Source: an uncultured Clostridium sp. (GTDB lineage: Bacteria; Bacillota; Clostridia; TANB77; CAG-508). From it: 64,000 nucleotides of DNA. Under the pieces are notes generated by a model that saw only the letters and a list, made by a program, of their open reading frames with translations, had not been told where the DNA came from and ran no database searches. Both the position numbers and the translations under genes were made by a program. Where the stretch lies: positions 1,072 to 65,071 of the forward strand of contig CAMMLS010000003.1 in the NCBI GenBank assembly GCA_946497775.1, given 5' to 3'. Shown here piece after piece: positions 47,676 to 57,153 of this stretch; the stretch's first letter is position 1, and each line of letters begins with the position of its first letter.

Positions 47676-49685
47676 TTGAAAGAAAAATTAGAAAAATACA
47701 AAAAAGAACTTAAAGAATTCGGTACGAGCATACTACATAATGTGCCAAATATACTAGTAGCACTTTTCATTATGATTACTGAAATAATGCTATTTGGTCA
47801 AGATAAGGCAGTTTTAGGAATATTACTATTATTTGTTCAATTAATGTGCATGAGTACATCATTTAGTGTTATAAAATTTATTAAGACTTCATTAATTTTA
47901 TTATTTGTAGGTATACTTGCAGGTATAGCTGAGCTCAATGCACCACTACTTATAATACTTAATTTCATAGTTCCATTTGGGATAATTATGTTACTTTCTG
48001 ATGACTATAATTCAAATGGATATTTTGTATATGGACTTTTCTTTTTATTAATGCAAACAAGTAATGTAGAAAGTGTAGCAGACTTAGGAATAGAAGCATT
48101 ATCAATAATATATGGTTTAGCAGTATTATTTGTTTATAATTTAGTATTATCAAAAATAAATAAAAATGAACCAGAAAAAAAATTAATTGCAACTGCTTAT
48201 GAATCTGTTGTAAAAAGATTAAAAATACTATCAAAGCAAAAATTAAATGAAGACACGCCAAACCCACTAAATAATATACTTGCAAAAATTAATACACTAT
48301 TATATAGTGAGGCATCACAAAAGACAGAGGTGTTAAATAAAAAGGAAGAGTGTTATTTTCAAAGTGTATTATTTTTAAAAAGGATTGATAAGTTAACAAA
48401 TTTAGCCTTAGAAAATAAACATAAGTTAACACAAGACGATTATAAATATTTTTATGATATTGCAAGATTATTCCAAACAATTAAGGAACAATATTCAGAG
48501 CATGATGTAAATGATATTATTAAGCTGTTAGACGAATTTGCAGAAAGTAAGAAGCTTAGCGATTCTAGTATGACATATGATTGGGTATATACTATAAAAA
48601 AATTAAAACATATTATAAAAATTGCAAACAAACCTAAAACAAAACTTTCTTTTAAAGAATATCTAAATATTAGAGCAACTAAATTAAAAAATAATTTTAA
48701 TTTAGATACAATACAAATGCGATTTGCATTAAAAACAGCTATTGCAGTTGGAATAGGCACAATAATTGAATATTTTGTTATGATAAAAACAGGTTTTGCT
48801 AATGCCTATTGGATACCTATAACAGTATATACATTAATGATGCAATTCCATGAAGAGCAAAACACAAAGATTAAGAATTATATTATAGGAACCTTGCTAG
48901 GTGCAGTCGTATTTTCCCTAGTATTTCAATTTGTACCTCCATCAGCAGGACTAATATTTATGGTTTTAGCTTTTGCTTTAATGTTTTCTGTTAAAAATGA
49001 AATATTAAGAAATGTAATAGGTGCACAAATGGTATTAGTCTTAACATATCCGATTTATGGTAAGGTGGAAATTATTTTAATTAGAGTTGGACTAATAATT
49101 TTAGCTTCTATAATTGCATGGCTTATAGGAAAACATGTGCTTTATACCGATAATTTACATGGATTAATAAATAAAGTAAGCCATTTACTAAGAGTTGATA
49201 GAAGCATTTTAAAATTACTTAAAAAAGCAATTAATACAAAAAATAGTGAATTTAAATATATAAGTGAATTATTGCTTGAATCTTGTTTGTTAGAAAGCTT
49301 AATTATAAAGCATGAGAAACAGCAACAATACTATTCAGATCCATATCTAACAAACTCGGTCATAAAATATAATAGAAATTTTATTTTAAGTGCAGAGCAA
49401 TTAATTAATATTTTTAGAGACGAAGATAAAGAAAAAATAATAGATAGTAAAGAATATATAAAATACATAGAAGAAATGGATAATATATTAGATGTTACCC
49501 AAAATAATTGGAAAGATATTTTAAGTGATTCTAAAAAAAGCATAAAACTAGAAAAGAAGGCAATTGGAAAAATATCTGATGATATTCCTTACACCACAAA
49601 GCATATGATGCTTTGCGTGAAAAATATTGAAAAAATTTACAAGTGCTTAGAGGAAGATAAAATAAAAATAAAAGAGAAAAAGTAA
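47676..49685 (+). CDS. FUSC/ArAE-like integral membrane protein
   Basis: 669 aa. Two hydrophobic blocks separated by a helical soluble region. 'MRFALKTAIAVGIGT...NAYWIPITV' resembles the fusaric-acid-resistance/aromatic-acid-exporter family. TTG start is uncertain. Confidence 0.55.
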   Translation: MKEKLEKYKKELKEFGTSILHNVPNILVALFIMITEIMLFGQDKAVLGILLLFVQLMCMSTSFSVIKFIKTSLILLFVGILAGIAELNAPLLIILNFIVPFGIIMLLSDDYNSNGYFVYGLFFLLMQTSNVESVADLGIEALSIIYGLAVLFVYNLVLSKINKNEPEKKLIATAYESVVKRLKILSKQKLNEDTPNPLNNILAKINTLLYSEASQKTEVLNKKEECYFQSVLFLKRIDKLTNLALENKHKLTQDDYKYFYDIARLFQTIKEQYSEHDVNDIIKLLDEFAESKKLSDSSMTYDWVYTIKKLKHIIKIANKPKTKLSFKEYLNIRATKLKNNFNLDTIQMRFALKTAIAVGIGTIIEYFVMIKTGFANAYWIPITVYTLMMQFHEEQNTKIKNYIIGTLLGAVVFSLVFQFVPPSAGLIFMVLAFALMFSVKNEILRNVIGAQMVLVLTYPIYGKVEIILIRVGLIILASIIAWLIGKHVLYTDNLHGLINKVSHLLRVDRSILKLLKKAINTKNSEFKYISELLLESCLLESLIIKHEKQQQYYSDPYLTNSVIKYNRNFILSAEQLINIFRDEDKEKIIDSKEYIKYIEEMDNILDVTQNNWKDILSDSKKSIKLEKKAIGKISDDIPYTTKHMMLCVKNIEKIYKCLEEDKIKIKEKK

Positions 49686-49751
49686 AATTTTTAAAATCTA
49701 GAAAAAATATTATTAAAATATATAATGAACACTAATTCTGAAAAAAATATA

Positions 49752-49789
49752 AAAATTACCATAATGTAGTAGAATTATGGTAATTTTTT
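49752..49789 (+). terminator. intrinsic terminator
   Basis: attaccataat gtagtaga attatggtaat + TTTTT. Confidence 0.75.
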
Positions 49790-49824
49790 ATTATTTGTGT
49801 TAAAATAAATTTGGTGATTAAATT

Positions 49825-51888
49825 ATGTTATCGGTTATTTTTAAAGGTATTATATTTTTAGTTTTAATGCTTATATTTTTTAGTAATAATGTATCTATTA
49901 TTCGTTTAGGTAACGCATATAGCAATATGCATATTGCTTTTGCTTTATTTTTAGCAATTATTGCTAGTTGTAAGTATAATGCTTTGAAGTATTATTTAGA
50001 AAGTAAAACAAAGCATAAATATGCATTTTGTATAGCCATTATTATTTTATTTTTTATAGCATTTAATTTATTTTACGCTTTTTTACCACAGGATTATGAA
50101 ATACATAATTGGCTTCTTAGCGAGTATAATCATAATATGGTCGATGCACAAACAAGAGATTTTACGTATTTACCAATATATTATAACTCGTTGAATATAT
50201 TGTCTATGACTTCTTTTGAGATGATTTTCTCTTTATTATTAATAGCAGTAGCATATATAAGAGAAAAAGCAAAAATAGGAGAGATGTCATACTTTTTAGA
50301 AAGAACTTTGAAAAGTGTGTTTAGATATAATTTATTAATTGTATTTTTAATTTATATACTAACAATTCCAAGTGGGATTGTAGATGTAATAAAAATTATA
50401 GGTATTATAGCTTTATTATTGTGGATTATATTTGAAAGCATAAAAACTTATTTGGCAATTAAAAGCTGTAGAATTAAAAACAAAGAAAAATATGGCAAAG
50501 ATAATTTAATTGTTGTTATGACTACTACGAATATTAATTTTAGCTTATCAGATTATTTACTAAACCCGCTTCATATTTTTTACAGATTTGATAATAAGAA
50601 TATATTTAAACCTTTAGTAGTTAGCGGAAAAAGTTATACATTTGTTTCTAATGATGCTATTAGATGTGGTCTTTTAGATATTAATCAGTTTAATGATAAT
50701 ATTGCATATATTTTCATGATTAATGCAGATTTACTTTTAATAGACACAAAAAGATATGAGTATGCAAAGAAAATAGAAGAAATTTCAAGTCAAACCAAAA
50801 AATTTTTAATTTACACAAAGGATGCATTTTTCTTTAAACCTGTTATTTTAAGAAACATCGAAAATAAATATTCTTTTAAAGTTAAAAATAAAGTATACTT
50901 AAAAGATATATTAGATGTTGTACACATTAAGCCAAATGCTGATGAGCTTAAATTAAAGGTAAAAGCATTACTAGAATTTATAAAGGATAAAGAGTTAGAT
51001 AATTATATAAAAGAAGAGTATGAAGCAGGCAGAATTAAAAAAGAGGATATTGAATCTAAAAAGCACACTTTGTACGAATTAATTCATGCAATACCACTTG
51101 ATAAAGAAGATGCATTAAAAATAGAAAAACAAACAAAGTTTATTGAAGAGGAAAAAAATACTTATTTAAAATATGGAGTAGAACAAATTTTAAATTCATT
51201 TAATTATATGGAGTATTTTTACACACTACTTAAAATGAGCGAATATGTAATTCATTACATGGGCTTAAAAAGCATTTTAGAAGAATCTAATGAAGACATA
51301 AAAATAGATAGTGTAAAATTTGGAACATGGAGAGAATTACTAGATTTTAATAAAGAATATAGCAGTAGAGATACTAAAAAAATCGAAAAGATAGTGAGCT
51401 TAAATGATATTGCAAATTCAATTATAGAAATTAACAAAATTGCAAGAAATAATAATAAAGAAATTTGTTTAGAAGATAAATTTTATTTTAAAGATGTATG
51501 CAAAGCGATTGGAACAATAAGAAACAGAATGTTAGTTCATGGTGCTGTATCATACAAAACCGCAGAAAATACAGTTGATTATTTGTTTAACTTATTATTT
51601 TTATTAGTAAAAGAATTTGAAGAATTAAATATAACAATAGGAGACGATGAGAAAATAAAAAATATTTTCGAAAAAGATATTTCGGCAGTTTACAGATATT
51701 CAAATAAAATGTTTTTATATTCAAATTCTGTATTAGAGGACAAAAAAGTGATTTATAATGAATGTATTAATTATGAAACAGGAAAGAAAAAAGTAATTGA
51801 TGGAAAAGCATGTTTTAATATAGATATTAGATATTCAATGGAACAAATTAAAGAAAAATTAGGAAAATGGATGTGGGATGTAAAATGA
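49825..51888 (+). CDS. hypothetical protein A: N-terminal multi-TM domain + soluble domain ending in an RNRxxxHG (HEPN-like) helical module
   Basis: 687 aa. About 5-6 TM helices in the first 215 aa or so. 'IGTIRNRMLVHGAVS' near aa 570. The C-terminal 250 aa or so are paralogous to gene B. Confidence 0.7.
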   Translation: MLSVIFKGIIFLVLMLIFFSNNVSIIRLGNAYSNMHIAFALFLAIIASCKYNALKYYLESKTKHKYAFCIAIIILFFIAFNLFYAFLPQDYEIHNWLLSEYNHNMVDAQTRDFTYLPIYYNSLNILSMTSFEMIFSLLLIAVAYIREKAKIGEMSYFLERTLKSVFRYNLLIVFLIYILTIPSGIVDVIKIIGIIALLLWIIFESIKTYLAIKSCRIKNKEKYGKDNLIVVMTTTNINFSLSDYLLNPLHIFYRFDNKNIFKPLVVSGKSYTFVSNDAIRCGLLDINQFNDNIAYIFMINADLLLIDTKRYEYAKKIEEISSQTKKFLIYTKDAFFFKPVILRNIENKYSFKVKNKVYLKDILDVVHIKPNADELKLKVKALLEFIKDKELDNYIKEEYEAGRIKKEDIESKKHTLYELIHAIPLDKEDALKIEKQTKFIEEEKNTYLKYGVEQILNSFNYMEYFYTLLKMSEYVIHYMGLKSILEESNEDIKIDSVKFGTWRELLDFNKEYSSRDTKKIEKIVSLNDIANSIIEINKIARNNNKEICLEDKFYFKDVCKAIGTIRNRMLVHGAVSYKTAENTVDYLFNLLFLLVKEFEELNITIGDDEKIKNIFEKDISAVYRYSNKMFLYSNSVLEDKKVIYNECINYETGKKKVIDGKACFNIDIRYSMEQIKEKLGKWMWDVK

Positions 51889-53141
51889 AACAAAATAGTT
51901 TAAAATTACATACAAATAAAAAGAACTTAAAAATAATTTTAATAGATGGAAATGTTTTGCCTAGTTCATTAGAGATAAAAAAAGAAGAAAAATACAAAAT
52001 TGCAAATAATCATGTATATATTAACATAAAAAATGAATTGCCTAAATTTAGTAGTAAAGAAAAACAATTTATAAATGAAAACACAATTGCAATTATACAT
52101 GAGGTAGAAGAAAATAACAATGTAGCTTTTGCAGAAAAATATAAAAGCATAGATATAAATAAAATAAACTTATTTCATATTATGGCTGTTAAAAATTATA
52201 AATTAAAAGACATAACAAGTAGTGGATCTATAAAAGTATGTGATTTAGATTCTGCAATAGAGTTTACAGAAAATCTTTTTATAACTAGTGAGCAGGAAAA
52301 TATTAAAAAATCAAGAATAAAAAAGGCATTAAGAAAAATATCTAAAATTAGAAAAAAACAGCCAAAAAATGATGAGATAAAAGAAGAATACATAAAAGAA
52401 CTAAATATAGTTTACCAATACAATTTTATAAATAGATTAAATAAAAAAATAGAATTAATCCCAAAAGAAAAAACTTTATTTAATTTATACAAAAATGCAT
52501 ATATGTATTCATCTTGCTATCAATCAGTTTTAGCAATGTTTGATTATATAACAGCAATGGGCAAAATGGTTGAATACTATTTATATGCAAAAAATAATCC
52601 CGGTTTCAAAAAAGATGTTGTATTTACAGATATAATAGGAGATAACCCACCTATATGGAATAATCAAATTTTAGTAAATGTTTGCAATAATAAAGAAAAT
52701 GTGTTATATAAAAATATTAGAGAAGAAAAATTTAAACTTACAGAAGATGAACAAATATTATTACACATTTATTTAAGTAATATATTAAATATGGATATAA
52801 CCGGAACAGAAATAACATTTGATGGCCTAGCAGAAATTTTTAGACAATTTAGAAATAGGGTAGAGGCACATGGAATTATAAGTGATGCAAATGTATATGC
52901 AGTTTGGAATTTAACACAATTTTTTGCAAAAATGTATAGTATAATATTCAAAATAGACCAGCTTGAATGTGAATTTAAACAAGATGAAAACGAAGCTAAA
53001 TTAGGTTATACAGGTGAACCAAAAGTAGAAGTAGGTAGATATATTACAGTTATAGATAATAGACTTTTATTTATTAAAGATAAAAAATCATATATAGATT
53101 ATCTTACAGGAGAAATTAAACCTGGGAAAGAGGTGAAATAG
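51885..53141 (+). CDS. hypothetical protein B: soluble paralogue of the C-terminal module of A (RNRxxxHG motif)
   Basis: ATG 51885 overlaps the TGA of A (ATGA). 'FRQFRNRVEAHGIIS'. No TM segments. Confidence 0.7.
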   Translation: MKQNSLKLHTNKKNLKIILIDGNVLPSSLEIKKEEKYKIANNHVYINIKNELPKFSSKEKQFINENTIAIIHEVEENNNVAFAEKYKSIDINKINLFHIMAVKNYKLKDITSSGSIKVCDLDSAIEFTENLFITSEQENIKKSRIKKALRKISKIRKKQPKNDEIKEEYIKELNIVYQYNFINRLNKKIELIPKEKTLFNLYKNAYMYSSCYQSVLAMFDYITAMGKMVEYYLYAKNNPGFKKDVVFTDIIGDNPPIWNNQILVNVCNNKENVLYKNIREEKFKLTEDEQILLHIYLSNILNMDITGTEITFDGLAEIFRQFRNRVEAHGIISDANVYAVWNLTQFFAKMYSIIFKIDQLECEFKQDENEAKLGYTGEPKVEVGRYITVIDNRLLFIKDKKSYIDYLTGEIKPGKEVK

Positions 53142-53144
53142 TAA

Positions 53145-55268
53145 TTGCGAAGTTTCGAACTATATTTAGACGAAAGTGGAAAATTTATTAACGAAGATAA
53201 AGCTTTAACTCCATCATTAATAGGTGGTATACTTGTAAAAACTGGAACTCTTAGTATAGAAAAAGCACAAAACATAATGAAATCAGCAATAGAAAAGGTT
53301 GGCACAAATTATGTACATATAAATGACTTAGCTTTATTAGATAAAAAACTAGCAGGAAAAGTTGCAGTAGATATTATGGAACAAATAAAAGCCATACCTG
53401 CAAATATAGTTATTTTTGAAAATAATGAATTACTAGATTTTAAAGATGATAAATTATTATATTTAAACATAATTACAGAAGGAATTATAAACTTGCTAGA
53501 AAAATTATCATTAGAAAAAGCAGATTCGGTAGAGCTAAATGTAATAGCAGCTGTTAGAAGAGATTTAAAAATAGATGATAATAAAACAATTATAGAACTA
53601 GAAGAATATAGTAAAAGAATTAAAGAAAGAATTTACATGAAGTTTGCAGAAAAAGACATTTTCTTATCTAAAAATTGCAGAGTAAATTTTGAACTTTCAT
53701 CAGCTAGAAAAAATGCAAAACTTATGCTATCAGATGTAGTATGCAACACTAGGTTAACAAGAAATAGTAGTAAATTTGATGATACTCAAAAAGAAAGAGT
53801 GGAGCAAATTTTTAATAGTAGTAAATATATTTTTAATGTATTTAGGACAAATATTCAGAAAAAATTATCAGAATATCTAATTAAAAACAATATAGTAGAT
53901 GCAATATTTTTAATAAATGAAATTGATGATGAAAAAACAAAAAAAGAGCTAATAAGTTTAATTATAAATAATATAAACACAATGCCAACATCAAATTTAA
54001 GAATACAATTAGAATTACTATCACTTAAAATCCGAAGCTTAATTGATGTACAAAGAAATTTACTTCTTTGCGAAAAACTTTTGCTTAATCTGCAAGAAAA
54101 TATAATTGGAAAAATAAAAGTAAAAGATTATATAATTAATAAGTTAAAACTTGATATTTCGCTTTATTTGCTTACAATATATACCCATTTAGGTAACAAT
54201 TTAAAATGCAAAACACAAATAGATATAAGCAAAGAGGAGTTAAAAACAATTAGTGGCTCATGGGAGTTTTTTGAATATTATTACATACTAAAAATAAGAG
54301 AAGCAATTTACTATAATACATGTTTTAATAATTTAAAAACAGTAGAAGTTTTAACAGAAGCAATAAATAAATACGAGCAAGTGCTAAAAACAATGGAAAC
54401 AATAGAAGAATTTGGAACAATAAAATCAGATACACTTGCAAAAGCTGTTGGAACAAGACTACAAGCATATATAGCTCTAATTAAACCAAACTTAGACGAG
54501 AAGACAAAAAATGAATATTACGAAAAAGCAGTAAAAGATTCAGAATATGCAATTTCTCAGTTTGTATCTGAATTAGATAAAAGAAGACAATACCAATATA
54601 GATGTATGCTAGAAATTTCAGTTGGAAATGTAGATACCGCTATAAAATACTTAATGAAAGTACTTGGAATTAATGAAATAAATTTTGAAAAGTTTATGTT
54701 GCAATTAGCAAATATATCTGATTTTTCTAAAAACTTTATTTTGGTAAATTACTTAGAAGTAATGCAATATTCAATAAATAATGGTAAAATAGATATTGGA
54801 ACAAAAATGTATGAAGCGTTTAAGAATAATGAAAATATTTTTAATGAATATTCACTAGAAAAATTAGAAAACAATTCTTTATATGAAAACACAACAAAAT
54901 TTTTAGGAATACATCCATTTGAAATTATATATTGGGATTTAGCAAAATATTTTAAAAATAATGACAAGGGGCTGGCTAATATTTATTTTGATAAAGCAAT
55001 TCAAATATGCAATCAAATTAACGAACCAGCAGTATCTGTATTAGAACTTGCAATAGAAGCAGATAAACTAACAATTTCAAAGGATATAAATATAGACAAA
55101 GAATCTCTTATAAATAAGTATGAGCAAATTATGGAAAAAGAAGAGTTTGGAGAAACACATGAATTTTTAAATAAATTAAGAGATGAAATTGAATATATTA
55201 AGCTTACCTCTGAAATTGGAGAAATAAAATCTATAGCAAAAAAAATTTTAGCAGAAATTAAAATTTAA
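53145..55268 (+). CDS. hypothetical protein C: DUF3800-like N-terminal domain + long helical-repeat (TPR-like) C-terminal region
   Basis: TTG start 9 nt after aagaggtg. 'FELYLDESGKF' and 'AKLMLSDVVCNT' resemble the DUF3800 DESG and (Q)xAD motifs. The remaining 490 aa or so are helical. Confidence 0.65.
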   Translation: MRSFELYLDESGKFINEDKALTPSLIGGILVKTGTLSIEKAQNIMKSAIEKVGTNYVHINDLALLDKKLAGKVAVDIMEQIKAIPANIVIFENNELLDFKDDKLLYLNIITEGIINLLEKLSLEKADSVELNVIAAVRRDLKIDDNKTIIELEEYSKRIKERIYMKFAEKDIFLSKNCRVNFELSSARKNAKLMLSDVVCNTRLTRNSSKFDDTQKERVEQIFNSSKYIFNVFRTNIQKKLSEYLIKNNIVDAIFLINEIDDEKTKKELISLIINNINTMPTSNLRIQLELLSLKIRSLIDVQRNLLLCEKLLLNLQENIIGKIKVKDYIINKLKLDISLYLLTIYTHLGNNLKCKTQIDISKEELKTISGSWEFFEYYYILKIREAIYYNTCFNNLKTVEVLTEAINKYEQVLKTMETIEEFGTIKSDTLAKAVGTRLQAYIALIKPNLDEKTKNEYYEKAVKDSEYAISQFVSELDKRRQYQYRCMLEISVGNVDTAIKYLMKVLGINEINFEKFMLQLANISDFSKNFILVNYLEVMQYSINNGKIDIGTKMYEAFKNNENIFNEYSLEKLENNSLYENTTKFLGIHPFEIIYWDLAKYFKNNDKGLANIYFDKAIQICNQINEPAVSVLELAIEADKLTISKDINIDKESLINKYEQIMEKEEFGETHEFLNKLRDEIEYIKLTSEIGEIKSIAKKILAEIKI

Positions 55269-55289
55269 AATTTGAAAGGGGAATTTTTT

Positions 55290-55964
55290 ATGAAAAACAA
55301 AAAAGTATTAATTGGAGTAATAATTGCAATTTTAGTAATTGCAGCAGTTGTAGCAGGGGTATTATTCTATCTTAATGCAACAAAAGAAGAAAATTCTAAA
55401 GAGAATAATGTTACAATAGGATCAGTAGAATTAATAGCAGTAGATCAAGAAGGAGAACCTATACCAGATGTTACTTTTGATTTAATGTCAGCGGATGGTC
55501 AAAAAGTTTATGGAACTTTAGAGACAGGAGTAGATGGAAGAATTATGTATTATGGGATGCCTATTGGAACCTTTATATTAAAAGGGACAAATCTTCCTGA
55601 GGGATATGAAGGTGCAGGTGCACAAGAAACTTTTGAGGTTTTTGGAGCAGAGACTACAAAAGTAGAAGTCGCTTTTACAAGAACTGTACCAAGACTTGTT
55701 ATAACAATAGAAAATGAACAAGGTGAAACTTTAAAAGATGCAGAAATTGATTTTTATAATGAAGATGGAAAATATGTTACAACTTTACTTGCACATGATG
55801 ATGGAATAGCTGCTAAAAATTTAGATGGAAATGGTGTTTATTATATAAAACAATGTAAAACACAAGAAGGTTATTTAATAGATGATACATCATATAGAGT
55901 AACAATAGATGGAGAAGACGACTTTACTTTCTATACAACAATAGTTAATAAAAAAGCTGAATAA
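55290..55964 (+). CDS. membrane-anchored protein with two SpaA/Cna-B-like prealbumin-fold repeats
   Basis: N-terminal TM helix. 'PIPDVTFDL...GTFILKGTNLPEGYEG' and 'LKDAEIDFY...GVYYIKQCKTQEGYLID' repeats. No LPXTG motif. Confidence 0.6.
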   Translation: MKNKKVLIGVIIAILVIAAVVAGVLFYLNATKEENSKENNVTIGSVELIAVDQEGEPIPDVTFDLMSADGQKVYGTLETGVDGRIMYYGMPIGTFILKGTNLPEGYEGAGAQETFEVFGAETTKVEVAFTRTVPRLVITIENEQGETLKDAEIDFYNEDGKYVTTLLAHDDGIAAKNLDGNGVYYIKQCKTQEGYLIDDTSYRVTIDGEDDFTFYTTIVNKKAE

Positions 55965-55990: not shown

Positions 55991-56332
55991 ATGGAAGAAG
56001 AATTTAAAATTATATTTAATATGCAAGATGAAATGTTTAATATTTTTCAAAAATCTTTTCAGAAAGATGGATATGAAATAGTTGCAAAAGAAAAAAATAT
56101 ATTATTTATAAAAAAATCCAAAATTAATTTAAGCAAAGACCAAATTGCGAGAATTTTAGGTATGTACAAATTGCAAAATCCAAATGGAGTATTATTTGTA
56201 GACATAACATCAGCAGTTAAATATTTAATAACTGTACCAGAAGAAAAAATAAAAAACGATGGAAGATTTAGATGGATGATGAGACAAGCACTAACAAAAG
56301 CAATAGTAGAAAAAAGCCAAAATGGAGGATAA
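55991..56332 (+). CDS. hypothetical protein (113 aa)
   Basis: ORF with an aaggtg RBS. No family recognised. Confidence 0.45.
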   Translation: MEEEFKIIFNMQDEMFNIFQKSFQKDGYEIVAKEKNILFIKKSKINLSKDQIARILGMYKLQNPNGVLFVDITSAVKYLITVPEEKIKNDGRFRWMMRQALTKAIVEKSQNGG

Positions 56333-56336
56333 AAAA

Positions 56337-56759
56337 ATGTGGAGTATAAAAAATTTATTTAAGAAAAATGAATGGATAGATCCATGGGAAGTTGAAGATG
56401 AAGAAGATTTTTTTGAAGATAATATGCAAGAAAAAGACAAAGAATATGATTTCCCTATTTTAAGAAGTGAGGCCATAAAAATTGCAAATGAAAACGAAAA
56501 TCTAAAAACGGACTTTTGCAGACAATACAAAAGGAATATTACATATTTATCTTTTAGAAAAAAGAAAATGGATTTAATAGAAAAAGATGGAAAAAAATAT
56601 TGGCAAATTCAAGTATTATATGGGGAAATTTCAGGAATAAATCAAAAAAGCTATGGAGAAGAATATTGGGATGGTTTCTTATTAAAAAGAGATTTGGAAA
56701 AATTAAGATGTCTAATAGATGTAGAAACAGGAGAATACATATATTATCCAATCAATTAA
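56337..56759 (+). CDS. hypothetical protein (140 aa)
   Basis: ATG 56337 after ggagga. Acidic N-terminus. No family recognised. Confidence 0.45.
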   Translation: MWSIKNLFKKNEWIDPWEVEDEEDFFEDNMQEKDKEYDFPILRSEAIKIANENENLKTDFCRQYKRNITYLSFRKKKMDLIEKDGKKYWQIQVLYGEISGINQKSYGEEYWDGFLLKRDLEKLRCLIDVETGEYIYYPIN

Positions 56760-56772
56760 GGAGATAAAATAG

Positions 56773-57153
56773 ATGGAAAACAATTATGAAAATATGAGCA
56801 AGTACTATTCAAATTTATATGATGAAAAAATGGAGAAATTTAGACTTTTATTTAAAGAAATGTTAGACTTTTTGAATATAAAATATGAAAAAGAAGACTT
56901 TTCTACATTAAAAAGTTTGGTATATGAAAACTATCCATATTACACACAAATAATTATTAATATAACTACAAAGCTTGGAGATATAAACCTTACATATAAA
57001 GAAATACTAGATAGTCTGGATAATATATATAAATATATTTCTAAAAATTATAGAAATCATGAGCAAAACATGAAAGATTATATAAAAGAACAAGAAGACA
57101 TGGAAGCATTGGGAGATAATTTCCTTCCAGAAGACGGAGAGGAAGAAAACTAA
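56773..57153 (+). CDS. hypothetical protein (126 aa)
   Basis: ORF with RBS aaggaga. Helical with an acidic tail. No family recognised. Confidence 0.45.
   Translation: MENNYENMSKYYSNLYDEKMEKFRLLFKEMLDFLNIKYEKEDFSTLKSLVYENYPYYTQIIINITTKLGDINLTYKEILDSLDNIYKYISKNYRNHEQNMKDYIKEQEDMEALGDNFLPEDGEEEN

Follow-up and report, generated by a model that had tools for sequence, protein, structure and literature searches.

Proteins of the HEPN superfamily have as their main conserved feature an Rx4-6H motif, which lies where core helix 3 ends and the loop to helix 4 begins (PMC3710099). The residue after the motif arginine is usually N, D or H, many families carry an acidic residue in helix 2, typically as Ex3[KR], and inserts occur between helices 2 and 3 (PMC3710099). 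Membrane-associated HEPN proteins have been proposed to act in stimulus-dependent RNA degradation (PMC3710099). Here we describe two neighbouring genes, A and B, whose products each carry an Rx5H motif, together with the gene C that follows them, in 64,000 nucleotides (nt) of DNA from an uncultured Clostridium sp. (assembly GCA_946497775.1, contig CAMMLS010000003.1, positions 1,072 to 65,071 of the forward strand). This whole stretch is called the window, and positions are counted from its first letter.

Gene C recalls a second group of proteins. TPR-DUF3800 proteins are RNase-H-fold accessory proteins of a Cas12a2 sub-branch (PMC10910872), lie next to about 40% of Cas12a3 loci (PMC13594972) and occur in some VI-F and V-A2 loci (PMC12669027), while in retron type VII it is DUF3800 that forms the effector domain (PMC7736814). 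The three genes of the window are as follows.

Positions 49825 to 51888, + strand: gene A (A-type), 687 amino acids; about six transmembrane (TM) helices precede an alpha/beta domain, a HEPN-like helical module and a beta tail.
Positions 51867 to 53141, + strand: gene B (B-type), 424 amino acids when read from the ATG at 51867.
Positions 53145 to 55268, + strand: gene C, 707 amino acids; an N-terminal DUF3800-like (RNase-H-like) domain with L-D-E-S-G, then TPR-like repeats.

A and B are paralogues whose motif is kept almost throughout their families, and their genes are constantly adjacent and sometimes fused. From this we infer, as the slightly favoured reading, that A and B would form a membrane-tethered, heterodimeric HEPN-like RNase of a conflict system, a reading whose predicted elements are the HEPN fold, the heterodimer, the RNase activity and the role in defence.

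A and B share a C-terminal module

The pattern RN.{4}HG occurs exactly twice in the 51 non-nested open reading frames (ORFs) of the window (19,004 amino acids), once in A and once in B, where 0.03 occurrences are expected from composition. BLASTP of A against B aligned the motif stretch only, with an E-value of 0.31. Because this single-sequence similarity was weak alone, families were collected for profile comparison, initially with 35 homologues of B and 15 of A. With these shallow profiles hhalign gave a P-value of 0.0047 for the full proteins and 0.0004 for the modules. None of 150 block shuffles (18.1 +/- 3.3, maximum 29.4) and none of 150 column shuffles attained the module score of 33.4. 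When the parts were compared alone, the upstream helix gave P 0.0068, reached by 1 of 100 shuffles, and the tail P 0.048, reached by 8 of 100.

An exhaustive profile search with the B alignment over 1.84 billion representatives returned 77 proteins. The distant matches mostly cover only profile positions ~330-560, corresponding to the helical module and the tail, and their N-termini are varied. A hidden Markov model (HMM) of the A module matched the motif region of many distant B-type proteins, and the profile search matched a separate upstream module in the proteins P0184, P0194 and P0210 (4e-9, 2e-5 and 3e-5, respectively). When deep profiles of 30 A-type and 80 B-type domains were compared, hhalign returned a probability of 97.2% and an E-value of 3.2e-11 over 192 colinear columns. 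This alignment spans the long upstream helix (helix 2), the motif and the tail, where NYETGK of the A-type pairs with YINYFxGE of the B-type. Between the alpha/beta domains of A and B no similarity was detectable (hhalign P 0.77), and paralogy is therefore claimed only for the helical module and the tail.

Could the likeness be due to chance, or have two AT-rich genes of low complexity converged on a short motif? The pairwise BLASTP E-value, the P-value of 0.0047 from the first, shallow alignment and the dissimilar alpha/beta domains would all be expected in that case. Such an origin is nevertheless exceedingly improbable, and the deep profile comparison together with the fusion and HMM evidence already refutes it: the shuffle nulls were never reached, the HMM matches are transitive, some proteins carry one module of each type, and the two motif occurrences lie in neighbouring genes. 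The earlier note on this DNA, which was made from the letters alone, had proposed that A and B share a paralogous helical module. On the profile evidence we consider it settled that they are ancient paralogues with a common C-terminal helical module and beta tail. In the family unit, a long helix in which an acidic residue is conserved (often as [ED]-x3-[RK]) is followed by an insert that varies, a helix closed by R-N-x4-H-G, a hydrophobic helix and a small beta domain with NY-x-x-G.

The motif is conserved in both partners

A census of all collected sequences found R-x5-H-G in 93 of 93 distinct B-type domains and in 31 of 32 A-type domains. The single exception, an A-type domain in locus L012, reads H-N-R-N-I-G-H-G. 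The arginine is followed by N in 120 of the 124 motif-bearing domains (B-type, n = 93: N 90, D 2, C 1; A-type, n = 31: N 30, T 1). When 29 diverse B-type modules were aligned, at 29% mean column identity, no columns other than R, H and G were invariant, while N and three tail residues (Y, Y and G) reached at least 90%. Only the same R, H and G are invariant in a joint alignment of the A and B motif regions (34 sequences).

Loss of the R and H residues in homologues had been named beforehand as an observation that would speak against a HEPN-like module, and these residues are retained. The motif had been written R-N-R-x3-H-G, of which R, N, H and G hold; the third residue is not conserved, being K, R or N in homologues. 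The candidate catalytic residues are thus kept in both partners, neither of which is a degenerate copy.

Predicted architecture of A and B

AlphaFold2 (AF2) models were of fair quality for A (pLDDT 71.8, pTM 0.65) and of good quality for B (pLDDT 84.1, pTM 0.86). The two proteins are divided as follows.

Positions 49825 to 50487, + strand: polytopic membrane domain of A, residues 1 to ~221, with six hydrophobic segments.
Positions 50497 to 50934, + strand: cytoplasmic alpha/beta domain of A, residues ~225-370, with alternating strands and helices in the AF2 model.
Positions 51151 to 51624, + strand: HEPN-like helical core of A, residues 443-600.
Positions 51520 to 51543, + strand: motif of A, R566-N-R-M-L-V-H572-G573 (Rx5H), at the C-terminal end of helix H3.
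Positions 51625 to 51885, + strand: beta-rich tail of A, with strands in residues 622-660 of the AF2 model at low pLDDT.
Positions 51924 to 52286, + strand: alpha/beta domain of B, residues ~20-140, with strands 22-27, 49-53, 73-80, 103-108 and 122-126 and intervening helices.
Positions 52470 to 52946, + strand: HEPN-like helical core of B, residues 202-360, pLDDT mostly 85-96.
Positions 52851 to 52874, + strand: motif of B, R329-N-R-V-E-A-H335-G336 (Rx5H), at the C-terminal end of helix H3.
Positions 52947 to 53138, + strand: beta tail of B, with six short strands in residues 366-419 of the AF2 model.

A hydrophobicity scan predicted six TM segments in A and none in B, in line with the earlier description of A as membrane-bound and B as soluble. 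In the AF2 model of A the helices of the membrane domain comprise residues 2-19, 35-58, 65-86, 125-148, 153-179 and 186-221. The core of A is built of H1 (443-456), H2 (461-486), an insert (487-554), H3 (555-572) and H4 (577-600), and that of B of H1 (202-213), H2 (217-243, with D226, K233 and E236), an insert (244-317), H3 (318-335) and H4 (343-360). Residues 555-594 of A read FKDVCKAIGTIRNRMLVHGAVSY and residues 318-356 of B read FDGLAEIFRQFRNRVEAHGIISD.

Among the A homologues R566, H572 and G573 are invariant and N567 is found in at least 90%. Helix H2 of A holds E463 and E473, both invariant in the A family, with no K or R at +4, and the tail contains N649-Y-E-T-G-K654 (nt 51769-51786), where NYETGK is nearly invariant in this family. 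Among 20 B homologues the invariant residues are F328, R329, N330, E333, A334, H335 and G336. The corresponding tail stretch of B is Y409-I-D-Y-L-T-G-E416 (nt 53091-53114), and Y381, Y409 and G415 are present in at least 90% of the broad family. All peptides quoted in the earlier note, including its upstream helices (A 457-481 and B 215-240) and the tails NYETGK and YIDYLTGE, are present in the two proteins. Its span of 51450-53000 encloses both motifs, with the upstream helix of A (nt ~51193-51267) and the tail of B (nt ~53091-53114) falling just outside.

These predicted structures agree with HEPN topology in several respects. The motif helix of B ends at H335, with a loop and then H4 behind it, and that of A likewise ends at H572, ahead of its H4. 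The residue after the motif arginine is polar, with N predominant in both types. The predicted order of the helices and a predicted insert of ~70 residues between helices 2 and 3 also fit. Helix 2 agrees in part: in the broad B-type alignment it follows D/N-Y-x-[ED]-x3-[RK], with [ED] in 19 of 29 sequences and [RK] four residues on in 20 of 29.

Two further observations concern the other parts of these proteins. The helix after the motif, the putative helix 4, was called TM by the Kyte-Doolittle method in distant members (P0196 566-584, P0206 573-591, P0186 544-562 and others); it is probably a buried core helix, with membrane insertion as the alternative. Foldseek found no significant fold match for the alpha/beta domain of B and only weak ones for that of A, to Rossmann-like/RCK folds and Csm6' (E 0.15-0.7). 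Such weak matches of the alpha/beta domains, which were to Rossmann-like GTPases, RCK domains and glutamate-receptor amino-terminal domains, are leads only.

A and B are constantly adjacent and sometimes fused

Eighteen loci were found via C in species-representative genomes, and further loci were obtained by exact-protein look-ups. The order A-B-C is found in the window and in L001, L004/5/14, L008, L009, L010, L015, L017, L018 and L020; in L012 it is C-A-B, and L011 breaks off within B. In all loci whose flanks were long enough, an A-type gene is the direct upstream neighbour of the B-type gene. This holds for four distant lineages (L007, L026, L027 and L028), where the gene immediately 5' of the B-type gene has the A-type signatures FY-x-L-[LM]-K-x-x-E-[YF], LRN-x-[FY]-[VIL]-GHG and Y-[IM]-D-[FY]-x-[ST]-G. 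In L017 (L017:6095-7889) the B gene is split into two ORFs, as is the C gene in L018 (L018:6432-8523), apparently because these copies of the system are decaying or because of frameshifts in the assembly. Within a few kb of the distant A/B pair of L026 (L026:1-4789) there are a TIR-domain gene and two genes for methyl-accepting chemotaxis proteins.

The proteins P0184, P0194 and P0210 (1076-1195 amino acids) are natural fusions, in which five TM segments are followed by an alpha/beta domain, an A-type module, a second alpha/beta domain and a B-type module. Both motifs are intact in these fusions, bar one N-to-C change. Since fusion and constant adjacency are classical evidence for physical interaction, they support an obligate A-B pair, and a partnership that had at first been called plausible is now more than that. 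At least one partner of the pair is membrane-anchored, and a soluble B that is tethered via its membrane partner A would fit the fusion and adjacency evidence.

B of the window is without the ~145-residue, four-TM N-terminus that is found in most homologues, which are ~560 amino acids long. A truncation artefact was considered and rejected, as the ORF is intact and starts at the stop codon of A. The absence of TM segments is shared with the 69%-identical P0002, with ~7 of 33 distant B-types and with the B halves of the fusions. B is thus not truncated, because its 99%- and 69%-identical homologues have the same length and other B-types are also free of TM segments. The 99%-identical database protein, P0001, has 418 amino acids, the length expected from the ATG at 51885, which overlaps the TGA stop codon of A as ATGA. 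This ATG is a more likely start of B than the ATG at 51867.

Gene C and the surface-protein genes

Among 86 homologues of C, one is named DUF3800 by NCBI and many have precomputed TPR_8 matches. L-D-E-S-G is invariant in the family, with D9, E10, S11 and G12 invariant. Distant C homologues match PF12686 (DUF3800) over nearly its full length at 16.9-18.7 bits, against a cut-off of 21, and C of the window is below the Pfam thresholds for both DUF3800 and TPR, with 16.8 bits for TPR_8. C adjoins A/B in 11 loci and also one distant A-B fusion: a C homologue (BLASTP 3.5e-57) is encoded directly upstream of the fusion P0184, next to a HicB gene.

More distant C homologues (21-27% identity; L021:10001-19679, L022, L019:5040-12163 and L025:9995-14023, from Selenomonas, Peptococcaceae and rumen Clostridia) occur without A/B. 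They are followed by other large genes, among them one for an Hsp70-like protein (IGIDLGTTNT) in L021, which suggests that C behaves as a portable module of several systems. In the distant homologues P0128 and P0126, residues ~231-256, just past the DUF3800 region, weakly match Pfam EAD11 (Effector-associated domain 11; E 0.01). The match may point to an adaptor domain such as those of NTPase-based conflict systems.

The properties of C raise the question of whether C, rather than A/B, is the effector. A and B would then be HEPN-derived but would act mainly as sensor or scaffold, with C as a DUF3800 RNase-H-like nuclease that is recruited or released via its TPR array. C is indeed better conserved among close relatives than A and B (65-84% identity versus 50-69%), it keeps the invariant D-E-S-G along with other acidic and histidine columns, and the quite different partners of its distant homologues in L019, L021, L022 and L025 are as expected of a portable module. 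However, A-B occurs without an adjacent C in L026 and L027, and none was seen in the short contigs L007 and L028. Because the pair exists without adjacent C, we take A-B as a self-sufficient core. The strict conservation of catalytic-type residues in both A and B would also be unexpected for a mere scaffold. We regard C as the main effector as quite unlikely.

Genes for surface proteins are the other recurrent partners. In nine related loci a trio lies directly upstream of A: a SpaA/SdrD_B gene (230 amino acids), a thioester-domain (TED) gene (~327 amino acids) and a SpaA gene (290-419 amino acids). The trio is found at L001:3324-5892, L004:3428-6090 and L003:2794-5857, with equivalents in L009, L010, L015, L017, L018 and L020, and its TED proteins score 23.5-33.6 bits against the Pfam cut-off of 22. 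In the window there is one SpaA gene, located after C, and no TED gene.

Positions 55272 to 55964, + strand: gene for a membrane-anchored SpaA (prealbumin-like fold) surface protein, Pfam SpaA 2.2e-22.

The probable start of this gene is the ATG at 55290. Homologues of its product are encoded in the clusters of L003, L004, L010, L018 and L020.

Weighing a HEPN RNase of a conflict system

On its motif and on the topology of the AF2 models, the module probably belongs to the HEPN superfamily. A role in a conflict system is proposed because of the co-transcribed DUF3800-TPR protein and the SpaA/thioester surface genes of relatives. The CRISPR and retron associations of TPR-DUF3800 proteins, the HicB gene beside the fusion P0184 and the role proposed for membrane-associated HEPN proteins give this a flavour of defence.

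A number of results weigh against this combined reading, the first of which concern the fold. B of the window is without the acidic residue of helix 2, having T229 instead, with K233 present. Single-sequence scans of A and B against Pfam, NCBIfam, PADLOC and PHROGs gave nothing, and per-member scans of the 29 diverse modules against the same collections were empty even at E <= 10. Searches of PDB sequences with four profiles, including a 53-column motif profile, returned only noise (Nup88, EB22 and endosialidase). Foldseek found no match with E < 1e-3 for the A and B models against PDB or for B against BFVD, and the sole HEPN protein that it listed was Csm6' (8pe3_B) for A, with an E-value of 0.71 and TM-scores of 0.10/0.15. 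For a comparison with the Abi_2 family, 369 plasmid genes annotated as 'Abi family protein' were found with a consensus-like peptide; 12 of these were fetched and 5 verified as PF07751 (167-195 bits). Against the verified Abi_2 alignment, hhalign gave non-significant P-values for the B-type (0.14 for the module and 0.02 for the core) and for the A-type (0.45-0.74), and the global scores of A/B with Abi_2 equalled the shuffle null.

The remaining points concern the role in defence. The cluster is flanked by housekeeping genes in the window, and a defence-island context is not evident. PADLOC-DB v2 gave zero matches for A, B, C, five neighbouring genes and the 29 diverse modules. No match was found by tblastn of B against plasmids and phages or of C against plasmids, nor by a pattern scan of IMG/VR with the B-family alignment, and there is therefore no evidence of phage or plasmid carriage. 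Finally, the constant link with SpaA/TED genes could indicate envelope biology.

Two assignments to described families were tried and rejected. The family is not filed under Abi_2 (PF07751, with its RN-x-CAHH-x-RLWN motif) because the profile comparison was not significant, and there is no Pfam match. A greedy hhalign extension of the B-type against Abi_2 did align ErIEValR with dYIexxlR and RNxCAHH with RNKvxaHG in colinear order, which is suggestive. A Csm6/Csx1-type CARF-HEPN protein was rejected on the Foldseek E-value of 0.71, with no Pfam CARF match and no CRISPR or cas genes in any locus. The sequence comparisons thus place the module in no named HEPN family. Of the earlier designation as HEPN-like, the placing of the motif is borne out by the models, in which it closes a helix at its C-terminal end and a loop and a long helix come next, whereas the sequence, profile and Foldseek searches brought up no HEPN match.

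These results bear directly on a non-nuclease alternative. The module might be a new helical domain whose invariant R, N, H and G serve to bind some ligand or partner (a phosphate-bearing signal, for instance), and A/B might be membrane sensors, chaperones or regulators for the display, anchoring or signalling of SpaA/thioester surface proteins. The absence of sequence or structure matches to any HEPN family would be explained in this way, as would the SpaA-TED-SpaA genes directly upstream of A in nine independent loci, the SpaA gene in the operon of the window, the polytopic TM domains of most family members and the housekeeping flanks. By contrast, the distant pairs of L007, L026, L027 and L028 and the fusion locus L006 keep the motif with no SpaA or TED gene in the available sequence, and the wholly TM-free B-types, B of the window among them, are not what such a role predicts. 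The invariant R and H with a polar N at a helix end, the upstream acidic helix and the obligate two-copy pairing form a specific HEPN signature (PMC3710099), and the partner C comes from a nuclease-like family tied to CRISPR and retron systems. On balance we hold the non-nuclease alternative to be possible, if on the unlikely side.

Proposed mechanism and its implications

In the heterodimeric HEPN-like RNase that we slightly favour, the modules of A and B would pair like HEPN domains, with an RNase site built from the two Rx5H motifs at their interface. A/B would then correspond, spread over two genes, to the pair of HEPN domains in Cas13. The six TM helices of A would hold the latent RNase at the inner face of the membrane; in most relatives B would add four TM helices of its own, and in the window a soluble B would be tethered through A. 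A cue from the envelope or the cytoplasm that is sensed via the TM domains and surface proteins, or via the TPR array of C, would activate RNA cleavage. This cleavage may arrest growth as in other HEPN-based abortive-infection systems, directed against phages or other mobile genetic elements.

A more specific version can be envisaged as a new kind of envelope-coupled immunity. SpaA/thioester proteins would capture or sense an invader (such as a phage or conjugative partner) outside the cell, the polytopic domains of A/B would relay the signal across the membrane, and the cytoplasmic modules would assemble a composite HEPN-like RNase, with the TPR-DUF3800 nuclease as second effector or regulator. 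This would be a bacterial counterpart to the transmembrane RNase signalling of the Ire1 type, made from a heterodimer. We consider this version quite unlikely.

If the module is a HEPN RNase, it represents an uncatalogued family, with about 77 clusters (50% identity) among the 1.8 billion proteins of a library and no entry in Pfam, NCBIfam, PADLOC or PHROGs. It would also be a bacterial HEPN design not described before, an obligate heterotypic pair that is sometimes fused and has polytopic membrane anchors. Such a pair would have links both with thioester surface proteins and with the TPR-DUF3800 accessory proteins of Cas12a2/a3 and Cas13 loci, which are poorly understood. As a two-gene system with natural fusions and TM-free variants it is tractable for studying how HEPN halves stay apart and then join, and it could reveal the role of DUF3800-TPR proteins outside CRISPR. 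If it is not HEPN, it is still a conserved and unannotated R/H-motif domain of gut Firmicutes.

Layout and distribution of the gene cluster

The GC content of the window is low, at about 23-31%. The cluster comprises seven closely spaced genes on the + strand, located between a FUSC-like gene (47676-49685) and a D-Ala-D-Ala carboxypeptidase-like gene on the opposite strand. Besides the genes described above it contains the following features.

Positions 49751 to 49795, + strand: AT-rich hairpin with a U-run between the FUSC-like gene and A; a perfect 15-bp stem, -15.8 kcal/mol, z = -6.0 versus shuffles.
Positions 55991 to 57153, + strand: three small genes of 113, 145 and 126 amino acids that travel with the cluster.

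The hairpin is probably a terminator, behind which A-B-C would begin as a transcription unit of its own; with too few G-C pairs, it escaped a consensus terminator scan. C starts with TTG, 3 nt past the stop codon of B, with GAGGTG upstream. From the overlap of A with B and this 3-nt gap between B and C, the three genes look like one translationally coupled operon. Upstream RNA motifs often accompany DUF3800 genes, for which reason positions 47-58 kb were scanned with Rfam; nothing relevant was found.

The upstream neighbour encodes a 669-residue membrane protein with a FUSC_2 (fusaric-acid-resistance-like) domain (3e-11). It is probably unrelated, since no homologue adjoins the system in any other locus. 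The three small genes had no family matches in Pfam or PADLOC scans. Their homologues are found in the clusters of L003, L004/5/14 and L010, where the 145- and 126-residue parts are fused as proteins of 332 or 437 amino acids.

All carriers of the system are metagenome-assembled genomes of uncultured gut Clostridia and Bacilli. NCBI cluster look-ups gave no name for the A and B proteins, and no description of them was found in the literature.

Comparison with known systems

The TPR-DUF3800 proteins of Cas12a2/Cas12a3, VI-F and retron type VII resemble C in having an N-terminal D-E signature and TPR repeats and in standing beside collateral RNases, as C would on the proposed reading. Unlike these, C is attached to a non-CRISPR, membrane-bound pair.

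The likeness of A/B to Cas13 lies in two diverged motif-bearing modules that would have to join, and the fusions P0184, P0194 and P0210 mimic the one-chain layout of Cas13. DUF3800 proteins also accompany type VI-F loci, which are Cas13 loci, as well as Cas12a2/a3 loci. Csm6/Csx1, in which a Rossmann-like CARF sensor is joined to HEPN in a dimer, recalls the order of an alpha/beta domain followed by a helical motif domain in A/B. In contrast to Cas13 and Csm6, A/B have no CRISPR arrays or cas genes, are membrane-anchored, and have an Rx5H motif followed by an invariant G.

Abi_2/AbiD-AbiF (PF07751) proteins have an RN-x-x-AH-type motif after a hydrophobic helix and IE-x-x-LR in an upstream helix at a similar distance. 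They differ in that their motif is Rx4H-H and that they are soluble and encoded by a single gene, and their likeness to A/B is not significant (P 0.02-0.74). The KEN domains of Ire1 and RNase L offer a functional parallel as HEPN-type RNases switched on by dimerisation, with Ire1 tethered to the membrane and sensing its signal across it. These, however, are eukaryotic, kinase-coupled homodimers with no sequence relationship to A/B.

In the bacterial membrane-associated HEPN groups, as in A/B, the third helix ends with an Rx4-6H motif whose R is followed by a polar N (PMC3710099). They resemble A/B in part in their acidic or Ex3[KR] helix 2 and, to judge from the models of A/B, in the variable insert between helices 2 and 3 (PMC3710099). 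They also share a cytoplasmic domain on TM segments, for which it has been predicted that RNA is cleaved at the membrane's inner face in response to a stimulus (PMC3710099). Unlike these described groups, A/B have no profile or structure match to any HEPN family. Their anchors differ as well: those described are a single WP-helix, the single TM of Abi2 or two TM segments with a Zn-ribbon, whereas A/B have an N-terminal domain of four to six TM helices. Only A/B have the additional alpha/beta domain, the NY-x-x-G beta tail and the obligate heterotypic pair. The proposed HEPN-like, membrane-associated, paired RNase module is thus of a known kind; what is uncatalogued is this family, its heterotypic A/B organisation with natural fusions, its beta tail and its link to DUF3800-TPR and thioester surface proteins.

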